NCBI GenBank assembly: GCA_030867685.1
Contig: JAQOWU010000007.1
Coordinates: forward strand, 1,054,001-1,118,000
Length of the DNA: 64,000 nt
Direction of reading: 5' to 3'
Origin: Wickerhamiella versatilis
Lineage: Eukaryota
Part shown: positions 7,275 through 54,600 of the stretch, in pieces
Layout: every line of letters starts with the position of its first letter
Position numbering within the stretch: position 1 is the first letter of the stretch
Program-made: the position numbers and the translations under genes
The notes under the pieces: generated by a model
Told to the model about the DNA's origin: nothing
The model's database searches: none
What the model saw: only the letters and a program-made list of their open reading frames with translations

Positions 7275-7348
7275 TGATTTAACCCAGGCTCGAACTGGGG
7301 ACCTCCCGCGTGTGAAGCGGACGTGATAACCAACTACACCATTAAACC
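7275..7348 (-). tRNA. tRNA-Val (anticodon CAC)
   Basis: Minus strand reads GGTTTAATGGTGTAGTTGGTTATCACGTCCGCTTCACACGCGGGAGGTCCCCAGTTCGAGCCTGGGTTAAATCA: acceptor stem, D arm, TT-CAC-AC anticodon loop, GTTCGA T loop. Confidence 0.95.
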
Positions 7349-19843: not shown

Positions 19844-22375
19844 TCAGAAGAAATCGACAAAAGCTATTTCGTCAGAGAAATTTGCTTTAGCAAAGTGATA
19901 AACAGACATCAATAAGAGAGGGAATCTTGATGTATAGAAATGTAAGTATCCTGAAGGTAAATCACCCACGACACTTTGTAGCTTTGGGTCAAAGTCATTG
20001 TAATGATGTAACTTGTTACGGAGAGCACGCAAAAGATCTAGGATCCTATCGCCGTGATACTTTCGAAACTTTCCGAGATTTTCGACAAATACCTGAGGGA
20101 ATTTATCGTGCCAGTTCGTGCCCACTGTTACGTATGAGGATGATTCGAGCTGATCTATTAGCTCGCTCTTTTCCTTCTTTGTTTCAATTTCAAGTCTATC
20201 ACTCACTCTTACAAGGAAATCTAGCCGTTTCTGGTCAGACCAGAAGAACGGATGTTTCAATATTTCCTCTGTTGCAGGTCTTTTGGTGGAATCTGCAGCA
20301 AGCATCGCCGTCACAAGATCCCTTGACTCCTCGTCTGGTAGCGAAATTTCCGGCTTATTTGCCAAAATATTTGCTTGGCGCAAATGTAATTCTTTGCCAA
20401 AAGGGTGGACACCCCAATTAAGAACATAATGAAAGACACACCCCAGAGAAAAAATATCTACTGCACGTGTCAGGCGTTCCGCAGGTATAGCTCGTGATAT
20501 TTCTGGTGCCGACCAGCCAGCGGTACCAGCACCAAGAGAGGTTGTAGCTTGAAAACTAGATTGCTCCCCCTCTAGTCGTTTGCAGAGCCCAAAGTCACTA
20601 ATAAGCATACGTGGAGGAACATTTTTGGCTTGTGGAGCAACTAAGATGTTCTGTGGCTTGATATCGCGATGTACTATTTTCAATGAATGCAAATGATGAA
20701 GACCAAGGGTGACTTGGCGCAAGCATTCATGGGTATCGACGCAAGCGAACTCACGTGCACCTTGTACCATATCTTCCAATGTTCCAGGACATAATTCTAA
20801 AGCAATGAATAGGAATTGATCTGTCTGGTACTTACAGTAATATCGTACGACATTAGGGTGATCATCGCTTTCACTCAGCACTGCAACTTCTTGAGCAGCA
20901 ACATCATAAAAATTCAGTAACATGCGCTTCACCGCGACAGCACGGTGTTCGAACGATCCCTTTAATACAATGGTGCCATGAGATCCATAACCCAAGACCT
21001 CATCACCAACAACCAGCCCATTTGGGAGTGTCTTCGCAGACAGACGTTCTCGTTGCTCCCTTGCCTTTTTTCCTCCACGAGCACCACGCTTGCGTTTCTT
21101 GGGTTCATCCTTGGCTGCATTTCTTGGACGTAGCAGCTTTTGAATACCAAAAAACCAGGCTAATAAGCTGAGAAATAATATTGTAGCAACATTTTCTCCA
21201 ACACGCAGAAAGAAAATCCCCCATGATAGAGGTGGCTTCGCTGGTCCTAATAACTGCGGATGTTGGGTAGCTGGTGGAAGTCCAAGCAGGGGCCGAGAAC
21301 TTTCATGAGTTTGGGTTCCACGAGACCACCCATATTGACACCACTCTGGATGAACGCCTATCAAATCGCCTACGTCTTCCAGCGGCCCGTCCATACTGCA
21401 AATTCTAGCATTAGGCGAGCTTGCAACAAGGGGTCCATATTCTGCCCCGCTTAGGCCCACAAGAGACCCATCTGGAAGGCGATCGACGTAAACGGCATTT
21501 TCTGCAGACGAAACTGCCTCAAACCGAAGTGGTGGTTGTTCTACAACTGCAAGTGCGCCTCTTTCATGGTTCAGAACTGGTCTCAGAGCATCAAAAACAC
21601 GAACTACCACAGAGGGGACTCGCTTAATCCATCTCTGTGGCCTCATGTCATCTGCAGACATTGCGATCACTGTATTGTTGTTGATTGGCGTTACGAACAT
21701 ACCGTCCTGCGGACGCTCGTATTGCTTCTGTAGATCGAAATCACGAGTATTTACGCTCCAGGAGGATATCCTTAGTACCCAAGAGTCATTGGTGCCACTG
21801 CCCATGCGCTCCTGGATGTCTAATATATATTCTGTTCGGCCCAGAATTAGAATATCTTTATCCTCTTTTAAAGCTGTTGAATTCCCTTTGCCAACCCCTC
21901 CTGCCGAACCGCTACCAAGTTGCGAAAGAATTTGGCCGGTTACAGCATCAACCACATATAACTTGGTCTGCTTACAACCAGTATACGCCACACCATCAAT
22001 AAGTCCGAAAGGTGCAGCTTCTATGAGTGACTGAATAGTCGTTGGAATACGAACAAGCTGTTCCTGTTCTAGATAAAAAAGATGGCCATTGTCACTCGGC
22101 TCCACAATCCACAGGGTACTCGCATTTTGAGGCCTTTCAATTTTGACAAGAGGCTCACCTGGAAGTGTCCAGAGTACAGCTCCTGAAAGTCGATCACGAG
22201 CCTGTAATGAGCCATCCACAAATGACAACAATAAAAAATCCGCAAGCCTCCAATCGCTAAGTGCACGAGGGGCTAGAGCAAAGGACCTGGATTCTTCCGG
22301 CAAGTCATTTGCCATTGAGCTAGAGGCAAAAACAATGCTACTGAACTGTAGCAATAGCTGCCACACCCACCACAT
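19844..22375 (-). CDS. IRE1: UPR sensor kinase/endoribonuclease Ire1
   Basis: Signal peptide from ATG 22375, lumenal domain, TM helix, 'KKRKRGARGGKK', kinase 'LGYGSHGT..HRDIKPQNIL..DFGL', KEN RNase 'DLLRALRNK.HHY'. Confidence 0.96.
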   Translation of the reverse strand: MWWVWQLLLQFSSIVFASSSMANDLPEESRSFALAPRALSDWRLADFLLLSFVDGSLQARDRLSGAVLWTLPGEPLVKIERPQNASTLWIVEPSDNGHLFYLEQEQLVRIPTTIQSLIEAAPFGLIDGVAYTGCKQTKLYVVDAVTGQILSQLGSGSAGGVGKGNSTALKEDKDILILGRTEYILDIQERMGSGTNDSWVLRISSWSVNTRDFDLQKQYERPQDGMFVTPINNNTVIAMSADDMRPQRWIKRVPSVVVRVFDALRPVLNHERGALAVVEQPPLRFEAVSSAENAVYVDRLPDGSLVGLSGAEYGPLVASSPNARICSMDGPLEDVGDLIGVHPEWCQYGWSRGTQTHESSRPLLGLPPATQHPQLLGPAKPPLSWGIFFLRVGENVATILFLSLLAWFFGIQKLLRPRNAAKDEPKKRKRGARGGKKAREQRERLSAKTLPNGLVVGDEVLGYGSHGTIVLKGSFEHRAVAVKRMLLNFYDVAAQEVAVLSESDDHPNVVRYYCKYQTDQFLFIALELCPGTLEDMVQGAREFACVDTHECLRQVTLGLHHLHSLKIVHRDIKPQNILVAPQAKNVPPRMLISDFGLCKRLEGEQSSFQATTSLGAGTAGWSAPEISRAIPAERLTRAVDIFSLGCVFHYVLNWGVHPFGKELHLRQANILANKPEISLPDEESRDLVTAMLAADSTKRPATEEILKHPFFWSDQKRLDFLVRVSDRLEIETKKEKSELIDQLESSSYVTVGTNWHDKFPQVFVENLGKFRKYHGDRILDLLRALRNKLHHYNDFDPKLQSVVGDLPSGYLHFYTSRFPLLLMSVYHFAKANFSDEIAFVDFF

Positions 22376-22449
22376 CCCTCTCTGCTTCACGCCTGCAATT
22401 TTAACTTTTACGTAATATACGGACTTAATCGTCTCATTTGTGGAGAGGA

Positions 22450-25400
22450 ATGTCCTCCCCATCAGCAAGGCCCTACAATACAAAAATTCGCCATGGTTTT
22501 GGCCAGATTTCGCTTGAATGGAGCGCATATTTAGCTGAGGCATTTTGCTCCTACTACTGTGACAAGCGACACGAGAGCGACCGACAACCTGAGCTTAAGT
22601 TGGACACGAGGGCAGACTGGCGTATAACTGACCGAAGACGAACAGTAGGGGCGGTAATTATGCTATGTCTTAATATTGGGGTGGATCCTCCAGATGTAGT
22701 AAAGACTCAACCCTGTGCACGACTTGAAGCGTGGGTTGATCCTGTAAATGTCATGGATCAGAAAAAAGCAATTGAACAGATTGGAAGAAACCTACAGCAG
22801 CAGTATGAAACACTGAGTACGCGTACAAGATATAAACAGTCACTCGACCCCTGTGTTGATGACGCTAAACGTGTATGTGTAGGTCTTCGAAGGTCTGCCC
22901 GAGACGACCGGGTTCTCTTACACTATAATGGTCATGGTGTCCCAAAGCCAACTCCTAGTGGTGAAATTTGGGTTTTTAATCGAGGATACACTCAATATAT
23001 CCCTGTATCTGCTGGCGAGCTTCTCCAATGGCTTGGTACGCCGTCCCTCTTAGTATGGGACTGCTCAGCAGCAGGGCGTGTTGTACGAGCTATAGCTCGC
23101 TCTGCGGGCGATCAATGTATTCAGATTGGAGCATGTCGTGCCGATGAAGTCTTACCAATGCATCCATCCCTTCCTGCGGATTTACTATCTTGTTGCTTAA
23201 CTACACCTGTTGACATGGCAGTAAAGTGGTTTGCTTTACAAAATCCAGATCTTGTGGAATCGCATTCTATCCCAGGAAAAGTTACTGACCGTCGCACACC
23301 TCTCGGTGAACTAAACTGGATATTTACTGCGATCACCGATACTATCGCCTGGTCAGCGCTACCACCTTCTTTATTCCGAAAACTTTTTCGACAAGATCTG
23401 GTTGTCGCTGCACTTTTTCGTAACTTTTTACTTGCTAATCGTATACTGAGGGCACACAATTGCCACCCCATTAGTAGCCCGGCTCTTCCAGATACGTCGT
23501 CGCATCCAATATGGGCTTCTTGGGACTTGGCACTCAACCATTGTCTGCTTCAGGTGAAGGTTCTAAAACAGGCTGAAAAAAGCGGTGATCACTATGATTA
23601 TGAGTATTCTGACTTTTTTGAGCAACAATTGACCGCTTTCGAGCTCTGGCTTAGATTGCGGCGCAGCGATGTCCCTAAACCGCCAGAACAGCTTCCTGTT
23701 CTTCTCCAGGTGCTCTTGAGTCAAATACATCGACTTAGAGCATTAGTTTTGCTTTCTCGTTATTTAGATCTCGGGCCGGATGCTGTCCGTATTGCTCTGG
23801 GCATCGGATTTTTCATTTACGTCCTTAAACTGCTGCAAAGTCCTGCGCCAGAACTTCGTCCTGTATTGGTTTTTATATGGGCACGTATAATGGCTGTTGA
23901 ACCTCGTGATGTGCAGCATGAGCTTGTCAAAGAGTCGGGATATGCTTATTTTTTGCAAATTGTCATTCAGTCATCCCCTGCTGATTCGTCTGAGGAAGTC
24001 GACGGTCGCCCAGAACACGTGGCTATGTGCTGTTTTATCCTTGCGCAGTTTGTTCGCGATTATGTGCAGGGACAACGTCTATTGGTTGACCATATGGGCT
24101 TCCTGCCAGCGCTTGTTCGCCATATGGCAGATGAACGTGGTCCTTTACTTCGTCAATGGGCCCTTTTATGCCTTGCCGAGGTTATAAGGGGTAATGAGGA
24201 GGTTTGGGCAGTTGTCAGATCAGTTGAACCTCATATATTCGATGTACACGTTGCAGCCAGACTGGATGATCCGATACCTGAAGTCCGGGCTGCTGCCGTA
24301 TATGCACTTGGTGCTGGTCTTGGATTAGCTGGTGTAGATGACGACCTAGCCCACAGGGTTGCTCGTGTATGTCTTGACGCAAGCCCTTTTGTACGCACAG
24401 AATGTTCTGTTTTCTTTGCTAATTATGTGGAGCTTCATGGTGCCCAATTTGTCGTGTGTGCCTTTACCACTCTTGAGGAAGAGTTCCACGCTCTATCTGG
24501 TGATGATTTGAGAAGTGAAAGCCCTGCTCATGGCTCTATCTCGCTGGCTGTTTGGAGGTTGATTCTCTGTTTAGCGACTGATGCCAGTTCTCCTGTGAGA
24601 GAGAATGCGGAAGCAATAGCAGATCATGTTCATCGTGCACTCGCTCGAACTCCACTTGGTGATGATATGCGGCGAATGGTTGCTGTGCTAGAGCCCAAGA
24701 GCAAACAGGGCAAGATCTCTACAGAACCACCGCAATTAGCGGAGTCACGAGGTTTCTGGGGTTGGCTAAAAGATGAAACAACTATGCGTTCTATTCCAAA
24801 TCCCTCTACAGAGATCAGCTCTCCAGCTTTGCACTCCCCCGACACGCCAACGTTACAACATGGTCTTCCATTGACCTCTAATTTATATGATTGGGCAGTG
24901 GTGTACTTTACCGAGCCGCAATTACATTCCACAGAAGCAGATGAGCCTGGTAGTGAGCGCTATTTGCAACGTTTGTATCGCAAAGATCGCAACGAACGTA
25001 TCTTATCTGTTACACAGGGACAAAAAGACTTGGCTGTTCAGGGAACATGGAACAATCAGCTGGCAGCACTAAGCTGTAAGGAGTCCCCATCTAAGCTGCT
25101 CTTCGCTCAGTTTGAACCTCAATTGTTGACACTGGCAAGAGATACGGTCACGGTTTATGATTGGTCTGCCAGCAGACGTATCTCTAGTTTCAAGGCAGCC
25201 CTCCCAAAGACTGCCTACCTTGCTGATGCTCGTCTTATCAATGAAGATGATATCCCCACTCTTCTTACTGCTGCAACAGATGGCCAGGCCCGGATATGGC
25301 GTAATTATGAGACTGACAATCCCCAGTTGGTTTCTTCTTGGTGGCTATTGCCTGAACTTGGTCGTGCTAATATTATTGTGGATTGGCAGCAGAGCCGAGG

Positions 25401-25992
25401 CTGTTTATTGGCAGGGGGTGATGCGCGAGTGATCCGTGTTTGGGATGCAGCATCTGAGCAGGCGCTCGAAGACTTACCTGTTCGGACGCCGGCAGCGCTT
25501 ACTGCCTTGACTTCTGATCAGGTGATGGGTAATTTATGCATTGCTGGTTTCGGTGATGGTTCAATTCATCTATATGACCGTCGCCTTGAACGTAATAAAG
25601 CTTTGGTCCGACGCTGGAAAATGCCTTCTGGCATAGTGAATGTTCGTATGCAGCGGGGTGGAACCCGTGAGTTGGTTTCTGGTGATTCATCAGGTATGGT
25701 ATCCCTGTGGGATGCTCGATACTCCGGATCGGTAGGTTCTTTCAGAGCGCATACAAGGCATATGCAGACCCTTGAGGTACATGAGCATGCACCAGTGATT
25801 GCCACGGCATCACGTGTTGTTGGTATTTGGTCCACAGCAGGGAGACGTATTTCCACACTCAAGTCGCCATCCTCTGGCTATTCTGTGCCAAAATCTGATA
25901 TCAGATCGGTTTGCTTTCATCCGCATGCAATGGTGCTCGCGATGTCATCCCTTATGGACGATCAGATTAGTATATTCCAGTGTACTGTTTAA
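22450..25992 (+). CDS. KOG1: TORC1 subunit Kog1/Raptor
   Basis: RNC domain 'CLNIGVDPPDVVKTQPCARLEAWVDP', 'HYNGHGVPKPT', 'PPEQLPVLLQVLLSQ.HRLRAL', HEAT and WD40 repeats. Confidence 0.97.
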   Translation: MSSPSARPYNTKIRHGFGQISLEWSAYLAEAFCSYYCDKRHESDRQPELKLDTRADWRITDRRRTVGAVIMLCLNIGVDPPDVVKTQPCARLEAWVDPVNVMDQKKAIEQIGRNLQQQYETLSTRTRYKQSLDPCVDDAKRVCVGLRRSARDDRVLLHYNGHGVPKPTPSGEIWVFNRGYTQYIPVSAGELLQWLGTPSLLVWDCSAAGRVVRAIARSAGDQCIQIGACRADEVLPMHPSLPADLLSCCLTTPVDMAVKWFALQNPDLVESHSIPGKVTDRRTPLGELNWIFTAITDTIAWSALPPSLFRKLFRQDLVVAALFRNFLLANRILRAHNCHPISSPALPDTSSHPIWASWDLALNHCLLQVKVLKQAEKSGDHYDYEYSDFFEQQLTAFELWLRLRRSDVPKPPEQLPVLLQVLLSQIHRLRALVLLSRYLDLGPDAVRIALGIGFFIYVLKLLQSPAPELRPVLVFIWARIMAVEPRDVQHELVKESGYAYFLQIVIQSSPADSSEEVDGRPEHVAMCCFILAQFVRDYVQGQRLLVDHMGFLPALVRHMADERGPLLRQWALLCLAEVIRGNEEVWAVVRSVEPHIFDVHVAARLDDPIPEVRAAAVYALGAGLGLAGVDDDLAHRVARVCLDASPFVRTECSVFFANYVELHGAQFVVCAFTTLEEEFHALSGDDLRSESPAHGSISLAVWRLILCLATDASSPVRENAEAIADHVHRALARTPLGDDMRRMVAVLEPKSKQGKISTEPPQLAESRGFWGWLKDETTMRSIPNPSTEISSPALHSPDTPTLQHGLPLTSNLYDWAVVYFTEPQLHSTEADEPGSERYLQRLYRKDRNERILSVTQGQKDLAVQGTWNNQLAALSCKESPSKLLFAQFEPQLLTLARDTVTVYDWSASRRISSFKAALPKTAYLADARLINEDDIPTLLTAATDGQARIWRNYETDNPQLVSSWWLLPELGRANIIVDWQQSRGCLLAGGDARVIRVWDAASEQALEDLPVRTPAALTALTSDQVMGNLCIAGFGDGSIHLYDRRLERNKALVRRWKMPSGIVNVRMQRGGTRELVSGDSSGMVSLWDARYSGSVGSFRAHTRHMQTLEVHEHAPVIATASRVVGIWSTAGRRISTLKSPSSGYSVPKSDIRSVCFHPHAMVLAMSSLMDDQISIFQCTV

Positions 25993-29822: not shown

Positions 29823-30362
29823 TCACAGGAAAGCCAACCACAGGGATGTGATCACAGACAGAAACTGTGTGGCATAGCCGGTACGATATACGCCCTTGAT
29901 GGTTACTTCCTTAGCATCATCCCAGATCAAATGCCTTATACCGTTCCAGGAGTGATAAGTCAGAGGAAGCGAGAGCAAAAACTTAGCAGGATACTTGGCT
30001 GCAACTGGAATATTTTCAACCGCAGCTGCGACGTCAGCGAACGAGAATTCATAGCCTACGAAGGGCAAACCCACATAAGCCCATAAAGCGACATAAAATG
30101 TACCAGTTAGGGCAATGCCGGTAAGGCGATGCAAGGCCGACATGACCGCAGTCAGTTGGGGCTGGTAGATTTCCAGATCTGGAGAGAGCGGTCGGTTCTT
30201 GCGCTGCTCCACAAGGATCTGCTGTGCTTGGGGTTCGGAGTTTTGCACAATGGGAATACGGCTCGATTGGAAACGAGCAAATATCATACTGCTAGCACGA
30301 GGACTGCCACGTGCCAACAGGCGTGATGAGCACCGAATAAGAGCTGGATTTAGACGTAGCAT
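29823..30362 (-). CDS. SDH3: Succinate dehydrogenase cytochrome b subunit
   Basis: 'QRKNRPLSPDLEIYQPQLT..MSALHRLTG', 'YHSWNGIRHLIWD'. Confidence 0.95.
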   Translation of the reverse strand: MLRLNPALIRCSSRLLARGSPRASSMIFARFQSSRIPIVQNSEPQAQQILVEQRKNRPLSPDLEIYQPQLTAVMSALHRLTGIALTGTFYVALWAYVGLPFVGYEFSFADVAAAVENIPVAAKYPAKFLLSLPLTYHSWNGIRHLIWDDAKEVTIKGVYRTGYATQFLSVITSLWLAFL

Positions 30363-30398
30363 ACCCGGAACGAAGAGGATCCAAACTGAATGTGTCAG

Positions 30399-30412
30399 CC
30401 AATGGGACCAAT
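30399..30412. promoter_or_regulatory. Tandem CCAAT boxes (Hap complex) upstream of SDH3
   Basis: CCAAT at 30399-30403 and 30408-30412 next to a respiratory gene. Confidence 0.4.
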
Positions 30413-30421
30413 TCCATTGTT

Positions 30422-30689
30422 ACTTTTGTTCTCATTGTTGGTCATTCGGCGAAACAGTCAGCAGCTGTCTAGCTAGACGACTCCACCGCCTATGCTGTTG
30501 TATGCGGTTGTGGTACCGTGTTTTACGGTCTACAAGCTGCTGCCACTCATACAGTGCGTACCTTGGTCGCTTGTGTGAGCTAGGAGGGGAGTCAGCGAGT
30601 AATGAGTCCAATCTTTTCTTCACCGAGATGCTTTACTGGTAGCTTCTAGGTTTCAATGCGGACTACAAGTCATAGGCAGTGTCAAAAGT
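30422..30689 (+). ncRNA. Candidate structured RNA element (family not identified) between SDH3 and SPE2
   Basis: Nested complementary segments form a terminal stem, a multi-branch junction and a possible pseudoknot; G-U pairs favour the + strand (see findings). Confidence 0.5.
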
Positions 30690-30802
30690 TTATTTATCTA
30701 GATATCTTAATATCCCCAATTGTCAGTAGAGCCGTTATTGTCTTACCGCCTGAGCTTGGCACGGACCTACCCTTACCCACTGGGAGTTTTTAACTCGGGG
30801 TG

Positions 30803-30886
30803 ATGTTCGCCAGAGGCTTTTTTTCACGTTGGATGAGCTTCGAAGTTCTACGAAAATTCACAACCCGTCCAACAAAACCCAGGTAA
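30803..30886 (+). promoter_or_regulatory. Candidate uORF (MFARGFFSRWMSFEVLRKFTTRPTKPR*) in the SPE2 leader
   Basis: ATG 30803, second ATG 30833, TAA 30884-30886; same frame as SPE2, ending 33 nt before its ATG. Confidence 0.4.
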
Positions 30887-30919
30887 CATCGACTCCAACG
30901 CAAAAAAACACTAAAAAAG

Positions 30920-31951
30920 ATGTCGGAGAAGTGGGTTAACCACGAAGTTGAAATTGACTGCGCATTCGAGGGTCCGGAGAAGTTACTGCGTGTGTGCTTC
31001 AATGGGCGAGGTTCGATGCTGCGGATTGAGCGTAGCAGATGGGAAAGCATGCTGAAACTCGTAAGGTGCAAAATATTAAGCATTGTTTCCACCCCTGAGA
31101 TGGAGGCCTATGTGTTGTCTGAGAGCAGCATGTTTGTATATCCCCACCAAGTTGTGCTCAAGACATGTGGGACAACAACATTACTTGAAGGCCTTACCGA
31201 GTTGCTTGAAATTGCCACATCAAGGGGGCTCTCGCCGCATGCAGCGTCTTATTCCCGCCGGGCCTGGATCTTCCCCGATCGCCAGCCGCAGACACACCAG
31301 ACGTGGGGGAACGAAGTGTCGAGGCTACGTGAATTCTGGCCAGAAGGGCGCTGGTCCCAGTTTGGAACCAAGCTTGAGGACAGGTGGTACTACTTCTATT
31401 ACGGTGACTACTTCCCAGCGGGGCTTGAGCTCATGATGACGGGCTTGGAACCTGAAAATGCGAAACAGTTCTATTTATCAAGTGATTGGCCGCTTGAAAG
31501 CTCAGTGCGGAGTTTGGATAGCTGCGATGATATCCTAGCTGACCCAGATGATGAGGACCCAGGTCACCATTTGGGAAACTTGATGACACGCAGAGTAGGA
31601 ATAGATGCATTATATCCATCAACTCAGCAGATAGTGGATTCTTTTGCGTTTGATCCATGTGGCTATTCTGCCAACGGTGTATTAAATGCGAAACATTACT
31701 TTACGATCCATGTAACTCCTGAGCAGAATTTTTCCTATGCATCCTTCGAAACGTCCGTACCCGAAGACCAACTGTCCACTGTAAAACGGGTTCTTAATAC
31801 CTTCAACCCGACAGAATTTACACTTGTGGGATGTGGCACCATGATGGAGGAATTTACTCGTATAGAAAAATGGTCCTGCGTGGCAGAAGCAAAATTTGAG
31901 GTGGGCCGCTCTATAATGGTCTACATGAAATTTAACTTATCTAGCACATAG
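30920..31951 (+). CDS. SPE2: S-adenosylmethionine decarboxylase proenzyme
   Basis: 'AFEGPEKLL', autocleavage site 'YVLSE/SSMFVY', 'LKTCGTT', 'FDPCGYSAN', 'TIHVTPE..FSYASFET'. Confidence 0.96.
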   Translation: MSEKWVNHEVEIDCAFEGPEKLLRVCFNGRGSMLRIERSRWESMLKLVRCKILSIVSTPEMEAYVLSESSMFVYPHQVVLKTCGTTTLLEGLTELLEIATSRGLSPHAASYSRRAWIFPDRQPQTHQTWGNEVSRLREFWPEGRWSQFGTKLEDRWYYFYYGDYFPAGLELMMTGLEPENAKQFYLSSDWPLESSVRSLDSCDDILADPDDEDPGHHLGNLMTRRVGIDALYPSTQQIVDSFAFDPCGYSANGVLNAKHYFTIHVTPEQNFSYASFETSVPEDQLSTVKRVLNTFNPTEFTLVGCGTMMEEFTRIEKWSCVAEAKFEVGRSIMVYMKFNLSST

Positions 31952-42123: not shown

Positions 42124-42668
42124 CATCTTCAAGTGAGATCTCATGCCGTGGGAAACCTTAGACTGGGATAACGTGAGCTGTTCAGATAGGAACAATAATA
42201 AAAAAATACACATACATCTAATTATTTTGCTCCATTGCTGTAGTAGCTTACATACAGCTTTCCGTGTGTGTATTGGGAAGCATTATCCCGATGCCGACTG
42301 AAGCTGGTTGTCAAACCATTTTAAGGTTCGGTCTAGGGTTTCGATGTGCGGGACCAAAAATAAGGGACGTCCGCTTTCCTAGAATTTACGGACAATTATC
42401 ATACAGAGCGGTCTCTAATATCTAATAACTCAAAAAAAATATATATCGAAGAATGCTCCTGGCAATTCTGTGATAACAGCGCTAAAGTGCTGGTAAGAGC
42501 TTGGGTATCTGTGACCCTGTAATACATTTGTGCATAGTAAAAAATAACGATACGCATACGTACTGTCTGCGCTTAATGTCATGGAGATGACCAGGAGGGT
42601 ATATTAAGTCTGAGCTGCCCATTATTGTGCATCACATGATGCAATTTCATTTGTCGGGATCATCCTCG

Positions 42669-45600
42669 ATGTTCCGACTCGTCACTCTTTGGTTATTTGC
42701 AGCACAGTTACCTGGTGCTCACGCCTGGTTTTGGTGTTGGGCTAATGGTAACTGGGGAGGACACTGTCAAGATGCCAGTTGCAATCAAGAATGTAATGGC
42801 TGCTGCATCACAGTAGACCACTCCTTCGAATATCGCCTCAAGAAAATATTCAAGAAACAGTACCACGCTAGTTGGGTTGTTTCTATGACGCAATGCCCAG
42901 AGACGGCATTGCTCACGGCAGTTCTGCCAAACTTTCAAACTTCGGTTATCACTACATCCCTTGATGCTACCTGTTGCGAAAATTCAACCCCACAAACGCA
43001 GACTCAAGGAAATCAAGTAGTCGAGAATACCATAGTACAGCAAGTTCCAGTTACCGTCACGCAGCAGGGTGTTACTGTCACTCAACCAGCCCAGACTATC
43101 ACCCAACAAGGAAGTACTATCACCCAGCCTGCACAAACAGTTACAGTTACAGGTCCTGGATCTACAATAGTGAATTCTCAGGTGGTTACTGAGCAAGGCC
43201 CAGGAACTACAGTAACACAACCTGGTAGTACGATCACACAGCCAGCATCTCAGACAACAGTATACGTTTCTCAGACTGTTACACAACCTGCAGCTCAACC
43301 AGATACAATTACTGTAACTCAACCAGGGCAAAATAGCCCTGCTGATACTGTTACGGTTACTCAACCGGGCTCAGCGGCAAGCCCATCTACTGTGACAATC
43401 ACAGCCCCGGGGTCGAATAGCCCCGCTGAAACGGTCACAGTAACTCAACCGGGCTCAGGAGCAAACCCATCTACTGTAACAGTCACAGCTCCGGGTTCGA
43501 ATGGCCCAGCTGAAACGGTCACAGTAACTCAACCAGGTTCAGGAGCAAATCCATCTACTGTGACAGTCACAGCTCCGGGTTCGAATAGCCCTGCTGAAAC
43601 GGTCACAGTAACTCAACCAGGCTCTGGAGCAAATCCATCTACTGTGACAGTCACAGCTCCAGGTTCGAATAGCCCAGCTGGAACGGTAACTGTTACTCAA
43701 CCAGGTTCAGGAGCAAACCCATCTACTGTGACAGTCACAGCTCCGGGTTCGAATGGCCCCACTGAAACTGTTACGGTTACTCAACCGGGCTCAGCGGCAA
43801 ATCCATCTACTGTGACAGTCACAGCTCCAGGTTCGAATAGTCCAGCTGAAACGGTCACGGTTACTCAACCAGGTTCAGGAGCAAATCCATCTACTGTCAC
43901 AGTCACAGCTCCGGGTTCGAATGGTCCCACCGAAACTGTTACGGTTACTCAACCAGGTTCAGGAGCAAACCCATCTACTGTCACAGTCACAGCTCCGGGT
44001 TCGAATGGCCCCACCGAAACTGTTACGGTTACTCAACCAGGTTCAGGAGCAAACCCATCTACTGTGACAGTCACAGCTCCAGGCTCGAATGGCCCAGCTG
44101 GAACGGTCACGGTTACTCAACCAGGTTCAGGAGCAAGCCCATCTACTGTGACAGTCACAGCTCCCGGTTCGAGTGGCCCCACTGAAACGGTCACGGTTAC
44201 TCAACCGGGCTCAGCGGCAAATCCATCTACTGTGACAGTCACAGCTCCGGGTTCGAATGGCCCCACTGCTACAGTTACAGTAACGCAACCTGGAGATACA
44301 GGAGGTGGCGGCACTTCTACGTTAACTGTCACGCAGCCTCAAAGTAGTTGCGGCGCACCGAGTACAGTAACGGTAACGTCTAATAGTGCTTTTTTATCGT
44401 CAACTGAGCTGGCTACTACACCTAGTGGCACCACCCCTACTGGTCTCACGAGTAGTAGCACCGGCTCTCCTTCTGTGTCTGTGCCGAGCGTGTGCATTTC
44501 GAATCTGCCTCAGGGTACCTCGATGTTTGGTTCGCCTGCTCAATGTGCATCATTCTGTAGTGAAGCTCAGCAGGCTTTTGAATCCTGCTCTAGTACTTCA
44601 AGTGTGAGTGGAAGCAGCTCACGGTCATGTATCTGCGATCTTACTACAAATTCCCAAGTTCAGCAGTGCTTTATATGCCGAGACTTTTATATTGATTCAC
44701 AAGTGGCTGGAGCTCCTTCGGGTACACCAGTGAGTGCTCTTCCTAGCGCTATCACTCAGGTCGCAACATTGTACTCGCAGCTCGTGTCTTCTTGTACCTC
44801 GTACTCATCATCCACGATATCGCTTTGCTTAAGCTCACCAGCCTCTTTGCCTTCTTCATTGACGACACAGCCATCTAGTTTGCAATCTCCTGGACCGTCT
44901 AGTGCTACCTCCCCATCCGCAGCTGAAACTTCTTCAGCCGTGCCTAGTTTGAGTGTTGTAACATCGAGACAAACATCGCTGCCAAATTCTGGCACTTCAA
45001 GCCAGCGAATTCCAAGTTCTTTGGTTTCACGCGCTTCAGAGACAAGCTCTCCTACACAGGAGAGCTTATCCACATCACCTGAAGGGTCTTTGACGACTAG
45101 CGCGCCAGAATCAACATTCTCTCAAACTGCTACGAACTCACTTTCGAGTCATCTTACTTACTCTAGTATTTCAAGTGTTGGAAGTGTTGAAACGAACAGT
45201 CAGGGCTTTACTTCATCAGCTGCTAATGGGTATACGAGCATTTTTAACTCGGCTAGTGTCTCTGTGAGTTCGTCAGGTCCATCAATAAATACTTCCGGAA
45301 TGTCTCCAGGGACTTATACCACTGAACTCACTGTTACAGTGACGTCCGTATCTGCGGGGACCACGTTATACTCGACAGTCCAGGGTACAACTCGTCCGGG
45401 TACCACGTTGTATTCGACATTGCCAATGTCCGTACTACCACCAGTAACATCTACTCGAGTTACAACGATAACTACAACATTCACAGTATCTGCTGGCTCG
45501 AGTGTACCAAGCTCAGGTATCCCTGTGTCTACTGTACCAGCCTCGAGCACCCAAGTGTCGAGCGGACCATATTCGAGCGGACCATATTCGAGCGGACCAT

Positions 45601-48600
45601 ATTCGAGCGGACCATATTCGAGCGGACCAGCTTCTAGCACCCCAGAGTCTACTGGACCGGCTTCTAGCGCCCCGGAGTCAAGCGGGTCGTATTCGAGCGG
45701 ACCAGCTTCAGGCACCCCGGAGTCGAGCGGACCAACTTCTAGCGCCCCGGAGTCGAGCGGACCAGCTTCAGGCACCCCGGAGTCGAGCGGACCAACTTCT
45801 AGCGCCCCGGAGTCAAGCGGAACATATTCGAGTGGACCAGTTTCAGGCACCGAAATATCTACTAGTCCTGCTACAGGGTGTATTACAGATATTCCTCAAG
45901 GCAGCAGTACTTTTGGAAGCGTCTCACAGTGTGGAACAGTATGCGGGTTTATCTTTTCAGAGTATTCTAATTGTAGAGGAAATGCGAACTGTATATGTGG
46001 TCTTACTTCGAGAATCAATCAATGTGCGGCTTGTCAAGCATTTTACTCGTATTCTGAAGTGAGCTCAAGTCTAGGTGGTGTGGCAGTACCTGCCATCACT
46101 GAAGTTGCAACGGTAATATCTGCCTTACAAGCTACATGCTCCTACACTCCAACACCGATTTCATTGTGTCTAGGTGGAAGTAACACAGGAGGTGTCTCCA
46201 CATACACGCCCACTGTAACAGTTATGCCAACAACGACACTCCCAGGTTCTACAAACACGGTACAAAACCCTGATAGCACTATTCAAGCATCAGCATCAAC
46301 AGAAAGTGTTCCTGGAGCAGATTCTACAATTGTAGGCACTACAGGTACTTTTACACTTCCAGAATCAACTATGACTGTAAATGGGTCTGTGGTCACGCTC
46401 ACAGGTCCCCTTTCTTCAGTGGTATCAACGATACCAATCTCAGTCACCGCGTCCAATATGGCAACTGTAAGTACACCGGTGCAGAGTAGTAGTCCTATCG
46501 GTCAGTCAACAGGTAGTTCAAAGACTTCACAGACACAGGCTATATCTTCTGTTGGTTCTAGTAATGTTTCAAGTGTCCCTACTACAGTTCCCTCTTCGGG
46601 TACAGTTTCAAGTTCGTCTTCAGTAAACCAGTCAGCTACGAATGGACAAACATCTGAAGAATCCTCACCAGAGTCAGTTTCTTCCTCTCTGACGAGTATC
46701 AGCAACCCGTCTCTCAATTACTATACTTCTACAATCGTATCTACGCTGATTTCTACGATTCCTGGTTCTGTGATTCAAGGATCTACAATCCCTGGGTCTA
46801 CCAGTGGTGGATACACTATTCCAGCATCGACTATTCCAGCATCCACTGTGGCAGGCTCTACTACTACAGTGCTATCTACTGTTACTACTAGGCTGCAGAG
46901 CTCACCATCACCGTCATCTCAGGGAGTTTCTAGCTCAAATTCCTCGCCAAATGCTGTTACGACTACAGACACGGCAGTTACTTCGTTGGTTACTTCTTTC
47001 CCACAGCAGATATCTTCAGAAGCGAGTGCACCAGAAAGCACGTCGGAGTCTCCAGCTAATAGCCCACCCATCAGTTACTTCACTTCTACAATTCTTTCTA
47101 CTCTATTTTCTACACTGCCTGGGTCTGTAGTTCAAGGATCAACTATTCCTGAGTCTACCAGTGGAGGATATACTATTCCAGCGTCGGTAATACCGGCCCA
47201 GACGGTGGCAGGAGGTACGACTACGATCCTATTGACTGTAACAACGTCACTTCAGAACTCGCCATCACAGGTAACAGAAGAAAACCCCAGCCAAACTACC
47301 ACATCTGGTACGAGTAGCGTGAATAGCGATGTGGAAAGCTCTATACCACTGAATACTATTACATCTACTGTTCCAGGTACCACAGTGGAACAATCAACGT
47401 TGGAAACCGGGGGGTCTACGGAAGTAATCTCTGGTACTACACGTGACCCCACTGTTGAGACAATTCTGTCAACAGTTTATCGCACGATATCCAGACAAGA
47501 TATATCTACGGACGTGTCTGTATCCTCTCAAGTTGATGGTGACACAACTAGGTACATTACTATGGTTCGAACCATAACACAAGGTAATGATCCTAATGAG
47601 CAAAATACTGCCACAGCAGTGGTACCGACCAGCACAGGCACCAGTACTAGACCTAATTCCGGTGACGGTGCTGCTGGAGGATCGGGATCCGGAGGTGGAT
47701 CAGGAGAAGCGACCGCCGGTGGTAACAATGCCTCTGCAGGAGGATCTGGCTCTGGAAATGGATCAGGAGAAGCGACCGCCGGTGGTAACAATGCCTCTGC
47801 AGGAGGATCTGGCTCTGGAAATGGATCAGGAGAAGCGACCGCCGGTGGTAACAATGCCTCTACAGGAGGATCTGGCTCTGGAAATGGAGCTAATGATCCT
47901 AATGGGCAAAATACTGCCACAGTAGTGGTACCGACCAGCACAGGCACCAGTACTAGACCTAATTCCGGTGACGGTGCTGCTGGAGGATCGGGATCCGGAG
48001 GTGGATCAGGAGAAGCGACAGCTGGTGGTAACAATGCCTCTGCCGGAGGATCTGGCTCTGGAAATGGATCAGGAGAAGCGACAGCTGGTGGTAACAATGC
48101 CTCTGCCGGAGGATCTGGCTCTGGAAATGGATCAGGAGAAGCGACAGCTGGTGGTAACAATGCCTCTGCAGGAGGATCTGGTTCTGGAAGTGGATCAGGA
48201 GAAGCGACGGCTGGTGGTAACAATGCCTCTGCAGGAGGATCTGGTTCTGGAAGTGGATCAGGACAAGCGACGGCTGGTGGTAACAATGCCTCTGCAGGAG
48301 GATCCGGCTCCGGAAATGGATCAGGAGAAGCGACCGCCGGTGGTAACAATGCCTCTGCCGGAGGATCTGGCTCTGGAAATGGATCAGGACAAGCGACCGC
48401 CGGTGGCAACAATGCCTCTGCCGGAGGATCTGGCTCTGGAAATGGATCAGGAGAAGCGACCGCCGGTGGCAACAATGCCTCTGCCGGAGGATCTGGCTCT
48501 GGAAATGGATCAGGAGAAGCGACCGCCGGTGGTAACAATGCCTCTGCAGGAGGATCTGGTTCTGGAAGTGGATCAGGAGAAGCGACGGCTGGTGGTAACA

Positions 48601-51600
48601 ATGCCTCTGCAGGAGGATCCGGATCTGGAAATGGATCAGGAGAAGCGAACGCCGGTGGCAACAGTGTATCTGCGGGAGCTTCAAGCCCTGAAAGTAGGCC
48701 AGCAGTCACTCCCGGAGTTTATACTTCTACTTACTATTCTACGAGGCTCTCAACCATTCCAGGATCGACGATTTCAGCTTCTGTTATCCCAGGAACGACT
48801 ATTGCAGGGTACAATGTACCAGGAACAACTATTCCAGGTTCCACACAAAGTGGGACCACATCATTAATGGTGGTCACAGTTACGGAGGTACTATCTACAA
48901 CACCCTCTGGATATGTGACTCTTAATTCGGGACAGGGAACTGAGAGCGCATCGTCAGTGCCAACTAGCGAAACGCTAGAGACCAATAGACCCACTACAGG
49001 TGAATCCTTCGCTCCTTCTGTTACCATGCCGGTAACGGCGTCTCTTCCAGTTAATACATCAGGTGAGGCCCCAGGAACATACACGACTACGATATTGACA
49101 ACAGTAACAGAGACACAGAGCCCAAGTACTATATTTACCACACTATCTGGTAGTCCTGTAGCTACTGGTTCACCGATATCAACGATTCAGGCGTCAACAG
49201 TGACAAATGTGCGTACGGTGACGATTGTTTATACAGTTGGATCTGAGACTGAAGCATCACCTACCGGAGCAGGAGCTTCTGCCTTTGCATCTGCATCTGC
49301 ATCTGCCTCTGCCTCTGCGGGCGCCTCAGCGCAGGCGTCTGTGTCTGTCCCCAGTCAAAATTCTCAACCTAATGGATCAGGGTCGGAAGGACCTGGTAAT
49401 TCCCGAGGCAATAGTCCTATTACTAGCACAATAACGACAACATTGCTTTCAACGCTTCCAGGATCTACAATTCCAGGATCTACAATTCCTGAGAGTACGA
49501 TTAATGGTAGAACAGTTCCAGGAAGTACTATCCCTGCGTCGACAGTTCCAGGGCAGACTAGTACATTAATCACTACTCTTACGACAGTGATAAGTGGTCC
49601 TGAATCGCCTTCTTCAAATGCGCCAGAATCGGCAGGGCCTAGTGGACCTAATGGACTTAGCGGCAGCATAACTGGTAACAGTCCTGTAACCAGTTTCATT
49701 GTCTCCACAATGACTAGTACAGGACCAGGGTCTACGATACCAGGGTCTACGATCCCGGAGAGTACGGTTAATGGCCAGACGATTCCAGGGAGTACGATTC
49801 CAGCCTCTACAGTTCCAGGAGGAGCTAGTACGTTTGTTAGTACTCTTACGACCGTCATCACTAGTCCTGAATCACATTCTTCTAATGTACCAAGTACGAT
49901 GGGGCCTCAAGTTTCAGAGTCTACTGGACCCAATGCACCGAGCTCGATAGGGCCTAATGGACCTAGCGGACCTAGTGGGTCAGAATTGACGGGACCCAAC
50001 AGCTCACAGACTAACGTTCCTGTTACTAGCACCATTGCCACTACACTGACTACATCAGGACCGGGCTCTACGATCCCAGGTTCCACGATCCCGGAGAGTA
50101 CGGTTAATGGTCAGACGATTCCAGGGAGTACCATTCCTGCCTCTACAGTTCCAGGAGGACTCAGAACATTCGTGAGTACTCTTACGACAGTAATCACAAG
50201 TCCTGAATCACCTGCTTCGAATGTACCAGGGTCGACAGGACCTAATGGACCTAGTGGGTCAGAATCAACAGGACCAAATAGCCCACAGAGTGGCAGTCCT
50301 ATCACTAGTACGATAGTTACAACACTCACTACATCAGGACCAGGTTCTACGATCCCAGGTTCTACGATACCGGAGAGCACGGTTAATGGTCAGACTGTTC
50401 CAGGGAGTACCATTCCTGCCTCTACGATTCCAGGAGGTGTTACTACATTTGTTAGTACTCTCACGACAGTCATCACAAGTCCTGAATCACCTTCTTCCAA
50501 TGCGCTAGGGTCAACAGGACCTAATGGACCCAGTAGGTCAGAATCAACAGGACCAAATAGTCCACAGAGCGGCAGGCCCATCACTAGCACTATTGCTACG
50601 ACACTCACCACATCGGGACCAGGTTCTACGATCCCAGGTTCTACGATCCCGGAGAGTACGGTCAATGGTCAGACTGTTCCAGGGAGTACCATTCCTGCCT
50701 CTACAGTTCCAGGAGGACTCAGAACATTCGTAAGTACATTCACAACAGTAATTACAAGCCCTGAATCGCCTGCTTCGAATGTACCAGGGTCAACAGGACC
50801 TAATGGACCTAGTGGGTCAGAATCAACGGGGCCTAACTCACCAAGCTCTGCAAGACCTAGTGGTTTAGAATCAACAGGACCAAATAGCCCACAGAGCGGC
50901 AGTCCTATCACTAGTACGATTGTTACAACACTCACTACATCAGGACCAGGTTCTACGATCCCAGGTTCTACGATCCCGGAGAGCACGATTAATGGTCAGA
51001 CTGTTCCAGGGAGTACCATTCCTGCTTCTACAGTTCCAGGAGGACTCAGAACATTCGTGAGTACTCTTACGACAGTAATCACAAGCCCTGAATCGCCTGC
51101 TTCGAATGTACCAGGGTCAACAGGACCTAATGGACCTAGGGGGTCAGAATCAACAGGACCAAATAGCCCACAGAGCGGCAGTCCTATCACTAGTACGATT
51201 GTTACAACACTCACTACATCAGGACCAGGTTCTACGATCCCAGGTTCTACGATCCCGGAGAGCACGATTAATGGTCAGACTGTTCCAGGGAGTACCATTC
51301 CTGCTTCTACAGTTCCAGGAGGACTCAGAACATTCGTGAGTACTCTTACGACAGTAATCACAAGCCCTGAATCGCCTGCTTCGAATGTACCAGGGTCAAC
51401 AGGACCTAATGGACCTAGGGGGTCAGAATCAACAGGACCAAATAGCCCACAGAGCGGCAGTCCTATCACTAGTACGATTGTTACAACACTCACTACATCA
51501 GGACCAGGTTCTACGATCCCAGGTTCTACGATCCCGGAGAGCACGATTAATGGTCAGACTGTTCCAGGGAGTACCATTCCTGCTTCTACAGTTCCAGGAG

Positions 51601-54600
51601 GACTCAGAACATTCGTGAGTACTCTTACGACAGTAATCACAAGCCCTGAATCGCCTGCTTCGAATGTACCAGGGTCAACAGGACCTAATGGACCTAGGGG
51701 GTCAGAATCAACAGGACCAAATAGCCCACAGAGCGGCAGTCCTATCACTAGTACGATTGTTACAACACTCACTACATCAGGACCAGGTTCTACGATCCCA
51801 GGTTCTACGATCCCGGAGAGCACGATTAATGGTCAGACTGTTCCAGGGAGTACCATTCCTGCTTCTACAGTTCCAGGAGGACTCAGAACATTCGTGAGTA
51901 CTCTTACGACAGTAATCACAAGCCCTGAATCGCCTGCTTCGAATGTACCAGGGTCAACAGGACCTAATGGACCTAGGGGGTCAGAATCAACAGGACCAAA
52001 TAGCCCACAGAGCGGCAGTCCTATCACTAGTACGATTGTTACAACACTCACTACATCAGGACCAGGTTCTACGATCCCAGGTTCTACGATCCCGGAGAGC
52101 ACGATTAATGGTCAGACTGTTCCAGGGAGTACCATTCCCGCATCAACAGTCCCAGGAGGACTTAGAACATTCGTGAGTACTCTTACGACGGTATTCACCG
52201 GACCAGCGCCTTCCACCAATAGAGGAACTACTACTTCTGGACCAACACCCCCTAATACTTCCCAGACCAGGCCAGTAACTTCCAGACTGCCAAGTGGTCA
52301 GACAGCGTCACCGAGTGTACCTTCTGGCTGTCTATCTAGCATTCCTGAAGGAACTGCTGCTATTGGTACCGTTGAAGAATGTATTACTGAATGTCAGTAC
52401 GTGATGCAAAGCTTCAGCTCATGTGGAAATGACAATTCATGTATTTCTGGACTTGTATCTCTAGAGGCTGTTGCGTCATGTGAAGTTTGCGTTTCCTTTT
52501 ATACCCAGGCAGTTGTGTCCAGTGAAATTTTTGTACCCACGGCTACCTATGTACCATCTTCGGTAGTCGTTCAGGCTACCTCAATATTCAGTGCAGTTGA
52601 AACTATTTACCAAACTCTTTTGAGCCAAGTTAATTATCCAACAGCATCAATATCTATGTGTGTTCCTTCGAATAGTCCTACAGGATCTCAACAGACAGGA
52701 TCTACAACGCCACTTACTGGTACATCAGGAACTACAGGACCCAACTCACCGGGCAATTCGAGACCCAACTCACCAGGGACTACAGGACCTAACTCACCGG
52801 GCAGTACGGGACCTAATTCACCAGGAACTACAGGACCTAACTCACCGGGCAGTACGGGACCTAATTCACCAGGAACTACAGGACCCAACTCACCAGGGTC
52901 TAGTGGACCTAACGCGCCAGGATCTTCGAGACCAGGTACGACAGGACCAAACAGGCCAGGGACTACAGGACCCAACTCACCAGGCAGTACGGGACCTAAT
53001 TCACCAGGGACTACAGGACCCAACTCACCAGGCAGTACGGGACCTAATTCACCAGGGACTACAGGACCCAACTCACCAGGCAGTACGGGACCTAATTCAC
53101 CAGGGACTACAGGACCCAACTCACCAGGCAATTCGGGACCCAACTCACCAGGGACTACAGGACCCAACTCACCGGGCAGTACGGGACCTAATTCACCAGG
53201 AACTACAGGACCCAACTCACCGGGCAGTACGGGACCCAACTCACCAGGATCTAGTGGACCTAATTCACCAGGCACTACAGGACCCAACTCACCAGGGTCT
53301 AGTGGACCTAATGCACCAGGATCCTCGAGACCAGGCACTACAGGACAAAACAGTCCAGGATCTACAGGACCCAACTCACCAGGGTCTAGTGGACCTAACG
53401 CGCCAGGATCTTCGAGACCAGGTACGACAGGACCAAACAGGCCAGGCACTACAGGACCCAATTCACCAGGCACCACAGGACCTAATTCACCAGGGTCTAG
53501 TGGACCTAATAATATCCCAGGATCTTCAGGACCTAACTCACCAAGCTTTACGGGACCTAGTACTCCTTTGAGCTCACGTGTGCCAAGTGGACAAACGGCG
53601 ACACCATCTATTCCATCTAACTGCATTTCTAGTATTCCGGAAGGGACCGCAGTTGTTGGAACTGTCGAGGAATGTGTTACAGAATGTCAGTATGTGGTAC
53701 AAAGCTTTCAGTCATGTAACGGTGATACTTCATGTATATCTGAGCTCGTATCCCTGACAGCTGTTGCATCCTGCGAAGTCTGTATTTCATTCTATAATGA
53801 AGCATTCATATCTAGTGAGGTTCTTGTGCCCACGGCTACTTATGCGCCATCAACGGTGGTTGTTCAGGCTACTTCAGTCTTTAGTGCAGTTGCGACTGTT
53901 TATCAGACTCTTGAGAGACAAGCAAGTTATCCTACGGGATCAATTTCACTGTGCTTCCCTTCTTCAACAGCTTCTCCTTCATCTCTAATGACGAGCCCTA
54001 CCTCAGGAAGTCTAGTACCAACTACAATCACAACCACTGTGACAACGGTACTTCCAGGTACGACAATATCACCGTCGTCCATACCTGTTTCTACTATTGG
54101 AGGAACTACTGTTCCAGCTAGTGAGGTTCCGATTTCCACCATTCCCCCAGGTACAGTCTCTTTTGTTACTACTATTACGACTTTGTTGCCTCCAGGACAA
54201 ACATATGTCTCCGTGAGTTTGAGTCAAGGCCAGACTGTGATATCTAACGGTAATACAGTTGTTATGTCCAATGCTCAATCGCAACCCCGGACAGGCTCGC
54301 TCTCCGAGGAAACGTCGCCAAGCCAGACATACTCAATGCCGAGGAGCTCTATAGAGAGTACTTCACCTCTTTCACCTTCCGGCCAAACCTCATCTCCTGC
54401 CAACACGGTACCTGGCTCATCTTCAGCGACAACACCCAATAGGCCGGCGTCAAGCTCTGTGCCCCCTTCGACGGGAATATCAACTCCTGGATATCAGCCA
54501 TCCACTCCCTGTATATCTAGCATCCCCCAAGGTACTAGCAATTTCGGTAGCCCTCAGGAATGTGTTTCAGTTTGTCAAAGCGCTTACCAGGATTTCAGAA

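Follow-up and report, generated by a model that had tools for sequence, protein, structure and literature searches.

The SDH3-SPE2 interval

The window analysed here is a 64,000-nt stretch of the Wickerhamiella versatilis genome (assembly GCA_030867685.1, contig JAQOWU010000007.1, positions 1,054,001 to 1,118,000 of the forward strand), and positions are counted from its first letter. It carries SDH3 and SPE2 as a divergent gene pair with an intergenic distance of 557 nt. A first-pass annotation, made from the sequence alone, had placed a structured RNA of 268 nt at 30422-30689 in this interval, and had read it as either a riboswitch-like leader of the SPE2 mRNA or an independent non-coding RNA (ncRNA). 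The results showed that the interval contains a separate + strand transcript, which runs from 30475 to approximately 30677 with minor ends to approximately 30770 and is independent of the SPE2 mRNA. The identities first given to the two flanking genes were confirmed by their domain matches. The features of the interval are listed below, where X24 is an RNA read run with tagged 5' ends and ORF means open reading frame.

29823 to 30362, - strand: SDH3, succinate dehydrogenase cytochrome b subunit, 179 aa (Sdh_cyt match, E 2e-28)
30371 to 30396, - strand: 5' ends of the SDH3 mRNA (start codon 30362-30360), marked by the reverse complement of the tag in X24 reads
30399 to 30403 and 30408 to 30412, no strand: two CCAAT boxes in the putative shared promoter region, read from the sequence
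30422 to 30474, + strand: 5' quarter of the proposed structure, which is promoter DNA and not RNA (depth near background over 30398-30459)
30475 to 30678, + strand: principal part of the independent short transcript, about 204 nt not counting the tail (tag and depth hump)
30492 to 30578, + strand: first short ORF, 28 codons (MLLYAVVV...), with no Pfam match and too short for a homology search
30502 to 30642, + strand: second, overlapping short ORF, 46 codons, with no Pfam match and a frame that a 5-nt insertion in the contig of a near-identical organism (organism B) would break
30677 to 30770, + strand: zone of heterogeneous 3' ends in the AT-rich tract TTTATTTATCTAGATATCTTAATAT (steps in X24 depth)
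30826 to 30919, + strand: true 5' leader of SPE2, 94 nt (tag before 30826 in 18 X24 reads)
30920 to 31951, + strand: SPE2, S-adenosylmethionine decarboxylase (AdoMetDC), 343 aa (SAM_decarbox match, E 2.5e-88)

An independent short transcript upstream of SPE2

Three raw-read RNA runs with the species label (X21, X22, and X24) and contigs of organism B were mapped on 30150-31050. The library of X24 is labelled PolyA. X21 and X22 are random-primed runs of one sample. In X24, transcript 5' ends were preceded by a 22-nt non-genomic tag, GTATCAACGCAGAGTACATGGG, which we take to be the 3' part of the SMART template-switch oligo. On the SDH3 side, tagged ends were found at 30371 (26 reads), 30382 (22), 30393 (11), and 30396 (20), 79 reads in total. 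The pile-ups of X21 and X22 lay approximately 15 nt inside the tagged ends of both genes, at 30354, 30360, and 30375 for SDH3 and at 30841 for SPE2, where 54 (X21) and 43 (X22) molecules began. The tag also stood in forward orientation at 30475, in 18 X24 reads. Since the tag behaves correctly for both known opposite-strand genes, 30475 is regarded as a genuine + strand 5' end. The base at 30475 is A and the preceding base is T, which forms a pyrimidine-purine initiator. Mis-priming of the tag at this site is unlikely, because the upstream bases are GCT and not GGG.

A hump of read depth from 30475 to approximately 30700 was seen in all three runs. Over 30398-30459 the depth was 1-3 in X21, 1-2 in X22, and 0.6-4.9 in X24, and over 30490-30680 it was 25-33, 10-19, and 40-53, respectively. 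Over 30739-30800 it was 1.4-4.7 in X21 and 2-4.6 in X24, and it rose abruptly at SPE2. The depth of 30708-30831 was far below both the hump and SPE2 in X21 and X24; in X22 it was comparable to the hump, still far below SPE2. Within 30739-30831, values of 4-4.7 and 1.4-2 were obtained in X21 (hump 25-33), and 11-12 and 4.4-5.6 in X22 (hump 10-19). From X21 to X22, the depth of 30708-30831 was approximately 2.5 times higher and that of the hump approximately 2 times lower, while that of SPE2 was unchanged. This difference could reflect variable read-through or just few fragments. In the random-primed runs the hump reached approximately one sixth of the depth of the SPE2 mRNA, and in X24 the depth of the short transcript (44-53) was equal to or above that of SPE2 (17-30). 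The mapped reads of 30150-31050 contained no splice joints. No variant positions were listed within the hump reads, which indicates that these reads derive from this locus.

The main 3' end lies near 30677, the position at which 8 of the 37 minus-oriented X24 reads start. Past this position the minus-oriented depth dropped in steps (39, 26.7, 14.3, 4.6, and 2), and the 3' ends are spread across approximately 90 nt, approximately 60-150 nt upstream of the SPE2 start site. No A-run was seen at the transcript ends; the PolyA label of the X24 library suggests that the molecules are polyadenylated. The contigs of X20, a possibly-RNA run of organism B, end at 30679 and start at 30840 and adjoin the read-defined ends, with the caveat that contigs cannot show transcript ends and that the RNA label of this run is a guess.

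The SPE2 mRNA and the short transcript have separate 5' ends, at 30826 and 30475. The main 3' end of the short transcript is approximately 150 nt upstream of the SPE2 mRNA start and 230-240 nt upstream of the ATG. Because the SPE2 mRNA begins at 30826, the candidate is not an SPE2 leader or riboswitch, and the riboswitch-like reading is refuted. The other reading, an independent + strand ncRNA, stood in part. A separate transcript does exist; its extent is 30475 to approximately 30677-30770 instead of 30422-30689, it matches no RNA family, and its folding is not unusual by z-score or against control tiles. One mapping of 5'-tagged RNA reads can discriminate a leader from a separate RNA.

A distance of 79-104 nt separates the start at 30475 from those of SDH3, which point the other way. 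Between these start sites stand the two CCAAT boxes, spaced by 9 nt. CCAAT boxes serve the HAP complex in S. cerevisiae, and those at 30399-30412 are plausible candidate HAP-complex sites for the respiratory gene SDH3. A scan for bacterial-type promoters gave no promoter-like site. The sole terminator-like match of a simple scan, at 30400-30419, coincides with the CCAAT boxes, where the DNA is not transcribed.

The composition of the transcript is high for an intergenic region. Its G+C of 0.50 is reached by only 13% of 108 tiles taken from the other gaps (0.413 +/- 0.072), and the highest tiles sit on real, overlooked genes. Between the organism B contig and the window, no substitution was itemised in 30363-30679 and six were itemised in 424 nt of flanks. 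One of the three "other letters" of this contig was not itemised, so 30363-30679 (317 nt) carries at most one substitution. Organism B also has a 5-nt insertion, GGAGA, behind 30587 in a purine-rich tract, which is slippage-like.

Folding of the proposed structure and of the transcript

The 30422-30689 structure had been drawn by manual pairing, and a check of the sequence found all five long-range pairings and all four hairpins at the places given for them. The terminal stems ACUUUUG/CAAAAGU and CAUUGUU/GGCAGUG pair at 7 of 7 positions each, three of the latter being G-U. The junction stem CAGCAGCU/AGCUGCUG pairs at 8 of 8 and GACUCC/GGAGUC at 6 of 6, and the "inner stem" has just 8 pairs, with mismatches included. 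The folding energies of the four hairpins ranged from -1.4 to -14.2 kcal/mol.

The folding z-score of 30422-30689 against shuffled sequences was ordinary, at -1.83 on the + strand, and 5 of 200 shuffles folded equally well. The - strand gave -2.29, and the claim that the fold is specific to the + strand, which had been based on G-U pairs, was not borne out. As a background control, 146 non-overlapping 196-nt tiles of the + strand were taken from 1-28616 of the window. These tiles had a mean z of -0.19 (sd 1.06), and 8 of the 146 reached -2.14 or lower, the value obtained for 30475-30670. With the read-defined 3' end, z was -1.61 (12 of 200 shuffles equally good) and the topology was altered. 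The opposite strand of the transcript folds about equally well. Three choices of ends led to three different global topologies, in each of which the minimum-energy structure made up at most 0.002 of the ensemble. Only local hairpins near 30509-34, 30546-79, and 30622-51 recurred across these choices. The listed pairings are real in the sequence and are within chance, and the folding lies inside the genomic background. The case illustrates that several helices drawn by hand in promoter DNA can look persuasive and still be due to chance alone.

The read-defined ends also bear on the structure. The start site at 30475 cuts through the first junction hairpin (30467-78), and the main 3' end coincides with or precedes the 3' strands at 30675-81 and 30683-89. 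Because 30422-30474 is essentially untranscribed and the main 3' end is at approximately 30677, the existing RNA can form neither of the terminal stems, nor the inner stem, nor the 8-bp stem of the junction.

RNA families and coding potential

At gathering score, a search against Rfam gave no match anywhere in the window. At E <= 10, only chance-level matches were found in 30300-30950, and neither RNaseP_nuc nor RNase_MRP (RF00009, RF00030) was matched. CRISPR-DR41, suhB, and TB10Cs1H3 matched outside the transcript with E of 3-7, and GHRLOS matched with 9.4 bits (E 5.6). Apart from such chance-level matches, the transcript has no match to a known family at either threshold.

Two short motifs had been said to recall faintly the conserved regions CR-IV and CR-V of RNase P RNA. 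The patterns used here for CR-I, CR-IV, and CR-V are those that we take to be the consensus. The CR-IV pattern AGNNNNAU is matched at 30605 by AGUCCAAU / AGTCCAAT; with four fixed bases, approximately one chance match is expected in 268 nt by our own arithmetic. AUGCGGACUA at 30656 fits the core of the CR-V pattern AUNCNGANUA. The CR-I pattern and the full CR-V pattern (GNAANNUCNGNG, ACNNNANNCNGNNUA) had no match in 30422-30689. The would-be 5' strand of P4, a CR-I-like stretch at approximately 30451-62, is upstream of the transcript 5' end, and the distance from the proposed P2 to this stretch is too short to accommodate a P3 helix. Compared with nuclear RNase P or MRP RNA, the candidate is similar in the two motifs that resemble CR-IV and the CR-V core. 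It differs in that it lacks CR-I, a full CR-V, P3, and an Rfam match, and in that the 5' part of P4 falls outside the RNA. The RNase P idea, with its CR-IV-like and CR-V-like motifs and an AGUC/GACU pairing, was dropped and is regarded as refuted in view of the RNA ends and the absence of CR-I and full CR-V.

Box H/ACA small nucleolar RNAs (snoRNAs) were also considered. The transcript resembles them in its length of approximately 200 nt, in one hairpin-hinge-hairpin fold, and in ACA or AUA near the 3' end. In this fold of 30475-30670, a 5' domain closed by GACUCC/GGAGUC is followed by a 9-nt hinge, a 3' hairpin with a large internal loop, and then ACA. ACA is at 30665-67 and AUA at 30672-74; the latter precedes the read pile at 30677 by exactly 3 nt, with the ends spread out. 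The transcript differs from box H/ACA snoRNAs in lacking a hinge-located H box (ANANNA occurs once in 30475-30700, at 30475, where the RNA begins), in a 5' domain that is a three-way junction and not a pocket hairpin, in a fold that shifts with the ends, and in the missing Rfam match. The two-domain fold disappears with the read-defined 3' end. The H/ACA identity was dropped for want of an H box. No C box (RUGAUGA), D box (CUGA), or Sm site (AU4-6G) was found in 30475-30700; the closest approach to a C box, UAAUGA at 30600, deviates at one position and has no accompanying D box. The longest T runs in the transcript have four bases and are internal.

The transcript has no ORF above 46 codons. 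A search with the 46-residue ORF gave 4 matches among 1.84 billion representatives, and none was a true relative. All four were tandem-repeat proteins of 172-800 aa, whose internal repeats inflate the score.

The SPE2 leader and the SDC motif

The SDC motif is a hairpin with an approximately 11-bp stem, located in the mRNA immediately upstream of S-adenosylmethionine decarboxylase ORFs (Li and Breaker 2017, PMC5640933). In the available text of this paper, it works with upstream open reading frames (uORFs) as a translational repressor, and the hosts among the species listed are Pezizomycotina (Ajellomyces, Aspergillus, Chaetomium, and Neurospora crassa). The short transcript is similar to the SDC motif in being upstream of a SAM decarboxylase gene with short upstream ORFs nearby. 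It differs in being outside the SPE2 mRNA, whereas the SDC hairpin is inside the mRNA and directly before the ORF. Minimum-energy folding of 30826-30919 and 30841-30919 gave no stem above 7 pairs, and an SDC-type 11-bp hairpin is absent from the true 94-nt leader. The host is a budding-yeast relative. The fungal SDC leader motif, which had been raised as a candidate, agrees with the locus neither in position nor in stem, and the two are set apart here by these features.

The true SPE2 leader has a 17-codon uORF, MSFEVLRKFTTRPTKPR, at 30833-30886, which is in frame with SPE2 and closed by TAA. Only 7 nt separate its AUG from the tagged 5' end, so ribosomes probably pass over it in most cases. 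At 30901, within an A-run of the leader, one additional A was present in 18 of 275 (X21), 28 of 269 (X22), and 3 of 34 (X24) reads and in the organism B contig. This could be homopolymer slippage or an allele.

Origin of the short transcript

Transcripts that arise from bidirectional promoters, known as cryptic unstable transcripts (CUTs) and stable unannotated transcripts (SUTs), are a documented class in S. cerevisiae (the available texts of PMC4845318 and PMC5864082). We believe that the short RNA is non-coding and SUT/CUT-like, arising divergently from the SDH3 promoter and stopping at that of SPE2, a reading to which we give an even chance. It is the best supported one because of the start at 79-104 nt from the SDH3 starts, the poly(A) signature, the spread ends, and the absence of family features. 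Between the two genes would lie an unannotated third unit transcribed by RNA polymerase II. A nucleosome-free stretch of approximately 100 nt (30363-30474), containing the two CCAAT boxes, would act as a promoter in both directions, leftward into SDH3 and rightward from 30475 into the transcript of approximately 204 nt. The latter would be cleaved or terminated and polyadenylated mainly at approximately 30677, with minor ends to approximately 30770, in the AT-rich tract before the SPE2 core promoter. A sequence-specific structure of the transcript would have no role, and any effect would come from the act of transcribing up to the SPE2 promoter, by insulation or interference. The data show directly both ends of the RNA, its strand, its occurrence in a PolyA-labelled library, its independence from the SPE2 mRNA, and the lack of family signatures. 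The type of polymerase, a promoter shared with SDH3, a non-coding character, and an effect on SPE2, if any, are what we infer from them.

The likeness to the SUTs and CUTs of S. cerevisiae includes the distance of approximately 80-105 nt from the opposite-strand starts of the neighbour, the short length, the PolyA library, the spread 3' ends, the lack of a long ORF, and the lack of an RNA family match. CUTs are defined by Nrd1-Nab3-Sen1 termination and exosome sensitivity. The host is also a distant yeast, whose nearest named SPE2 relatives have approximately 40-42% identity. Several points weigh against the SUT/CUT-like reading. The RNA is shorter than typical SUTs and CUTs of S. cerevisiae, and its one preferred 3' end is sharper. 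Its G+C is matched by few gap tiles. Motifs of the Nrd1/Nab3 type show no enrichment (the transcript strand has 11, as does the opposite strand, and shuffles have 7.3 +/- 2.9), with the proviso that this motif set may not apply in this yeast. The presence of at most one substitution in 317 nt relative to organism B hints at constraint. The genome is compact, so an extra unit might be a real gene. Another comparison is the SRG1-SER3 type, in which transcription upstream of a promoter acts by transcriptional interference. The short transcript is similar in being non-coding, on the same strand as the downstream gene, and reaching the promoter of this gene. It differs in that most molecules here end 60-150 nt before the SPE2 start instead of crossing it.

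The same RNA could come from a gene at approximately 30475-30678 for a small, structured, functional ncRNA whose family is either undescribed or highly divergent, such as a non-canonical snoRNA-like RNA, with the polyadenylated molecules as precursors. Its discrete ends and snoRNA-like size of approximately 204 nt would suit such a gene, as would the two-domain fold with hinge and ACA (z of -2.14), the AUA placed exactly 3 nt before the 30677 pile, a G+C typical of coding sequence, the close agreement with organism B, and a location in a gap that has no larger empty counterpart in this compact window. We still consider it rather unlikely. Rfam gave no match at gathering score or at E <= 10, the only ANANNA is at the extreme 5' end, and C/D boxes and an Sm site are missing. 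The z-score and topology do not hold with the read-defined 3' end, the opposite strand folds about as well, and the same is true of 8 of the 146 background tiles. In the 30475-30670 fold, the organism B insertion sits within the closing helix of the 5' domain. A stable small RNA would be expected to exceed one sixth of the SPE2 depth in the random-primed runs, unless these libraries were poly(A)- or size-selected. The object as first proposed, a 268-nt structured RNA that is a riboswitch-like SPE2 leader or RNase P/MRP-like, is scarcely credible. Its pairings exist and its CR-IV-like and CR-V-core-like motifs fit the patterns assumed above, and yet 30422-30474 does not rise above background in the reads, the SPE2 mRNA begins at 30826, CR-I, full CR-V, P3 space, and RNaseP_nuc or RNase_MRP matches at E <= 10 are all missing, and the fold is ordinary and not strand-specific.

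That 30475 is an upstream start of SPE2 itself is improbable in our view. Under this explanation, transcription from 30475 mostly halts at approximately 30677-30770 by attenuation, and the read-through product, made in variable proportion, is a 445-nt, poorly translated leader laden with upstream AUGs that tunes SPE2, perhaps via polyamines. The transcript shares the strand of SPE2 and immediately precedes it, the depth of 30739-30831 is nonzero and differs between X21 and X22 with the SPE2 depth unchanged, and a read-through RNA would bear 7 upstream AUGs. AdoMetDC genes are leader-regulated in many eukaryotes, as described in the available texts of PMC2811004 and PMC5640933. However, the read-through is approximately 5-17 reads deep and possibly consists of few fragments, no read pair or contig was shown to link 30475 to the SPE2 ORF, and the X20 contigs break between 30679 and 30840. 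Among fungi, the available text of PMC2811004 gives AdoMetDC uORFs for Pezizomycotina alone and not for budding yeasts. A miniature mRNA for a 28-residue hydrophobic peptide (30492-30578) or a 46-residue peptide (30502-30642) has a still smaller probability. The PolyA-labelled library, the start of the RNA polymerase II type, and a 17-nt leader resembling the short leader of SDH3 are in keeping with an mRNA; the first AUG opens the 28-codon ORF, approximately 100 nt of 3' untranslated region and then an AT-rich end signal follow, and the organism B insertion is downstream of this ORF. By our own arithmetic, however, a 28-codon ORF follows a random AUG by chance in approximately 1 of 4 cases. 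Both AUGs have a pyrimidine at -3, and neither ORF has a Pfam match. Prolines and a lysine interrupt the hydrophobic stretch of the 28-residue peptide, and the 46-residue ORF has no true relative among the searched representatives and would be frameshifted by the insertion.

As it stands, the SUT/CUT-like transcript carries little weight, as one more unannotated short polyadenylated intergenic transcript of a yeast. It is unlikely that the 30475-30678 RNA is a conserved functional element of the lineage, either the founding member of an undescribed small ncRNA family or a regulated terminator or attenuator whose read-through, unequal in X21 and X22, sets SPE2 output in response to polyamines. 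The hints in favour are the coding-like G+C, the presence of at most one substitution in 317 nt relative to organism B, a strain or species related to this one, and the location in the largest empty gap. If the RNA were conserved or the read-through polyamine-responsive, a relative of the budding yeasts would have a tractable element that controls S-adenosylmethionine decarboxylase from upstream. A regulated attenuator unit, if true, would be the first leader-type AdoMetDC control in budding yeasts, for which the available text of PMC2811004 gives no such control.

Genomic setting and other observations

The host genome is compact and yeast-like. In a gap census of the window, in which ORFs of at least 100 aa were taken as genes, most gaps were 100-450 nt. 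The SDH3-SPE2 gap had been called large for this window, which was correct: with 557 nt it ranks third among the 31 gaps. The first-ranked gap (1223 nt) is an artefact spanned by an 899-aa ORF, and the second (664 nt, divergent) contains a tRNA-Val gene. The SDH3-SPE2 gap is the largest otherwise empty one.

The nearest named relatives of SPE2 are from Wickerhamiella sorbophila, Trichomonascus, and Blastobotrys. The closest SPE2 protein is 77% identical and is encoded on a 52-kb contig (P0002). A metagenome scan with SPE2 gave 6 loci of 31-38% identity, which are too distant for aligning the intergenic RNA.

The tRNA-Val (CAC) gene lies at 7275-7348 on the - strand. A 110-aa ORF at 4595-4927 (- strand), with G+C of up to 0.62 and within an apparent 966-nt gap, is probably a small real gene. 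The 899-aa ORF, which has kinase-like sequence (19844-22543, - strand), and a 1180-aa ORF (22450-25992, + strand) overlap by 94 nt at their 5' ends; for one of them the true start codon is probably further downstream. An uninterrupted ORF of 4870 codons occupies 42636-57248 on the + strand.

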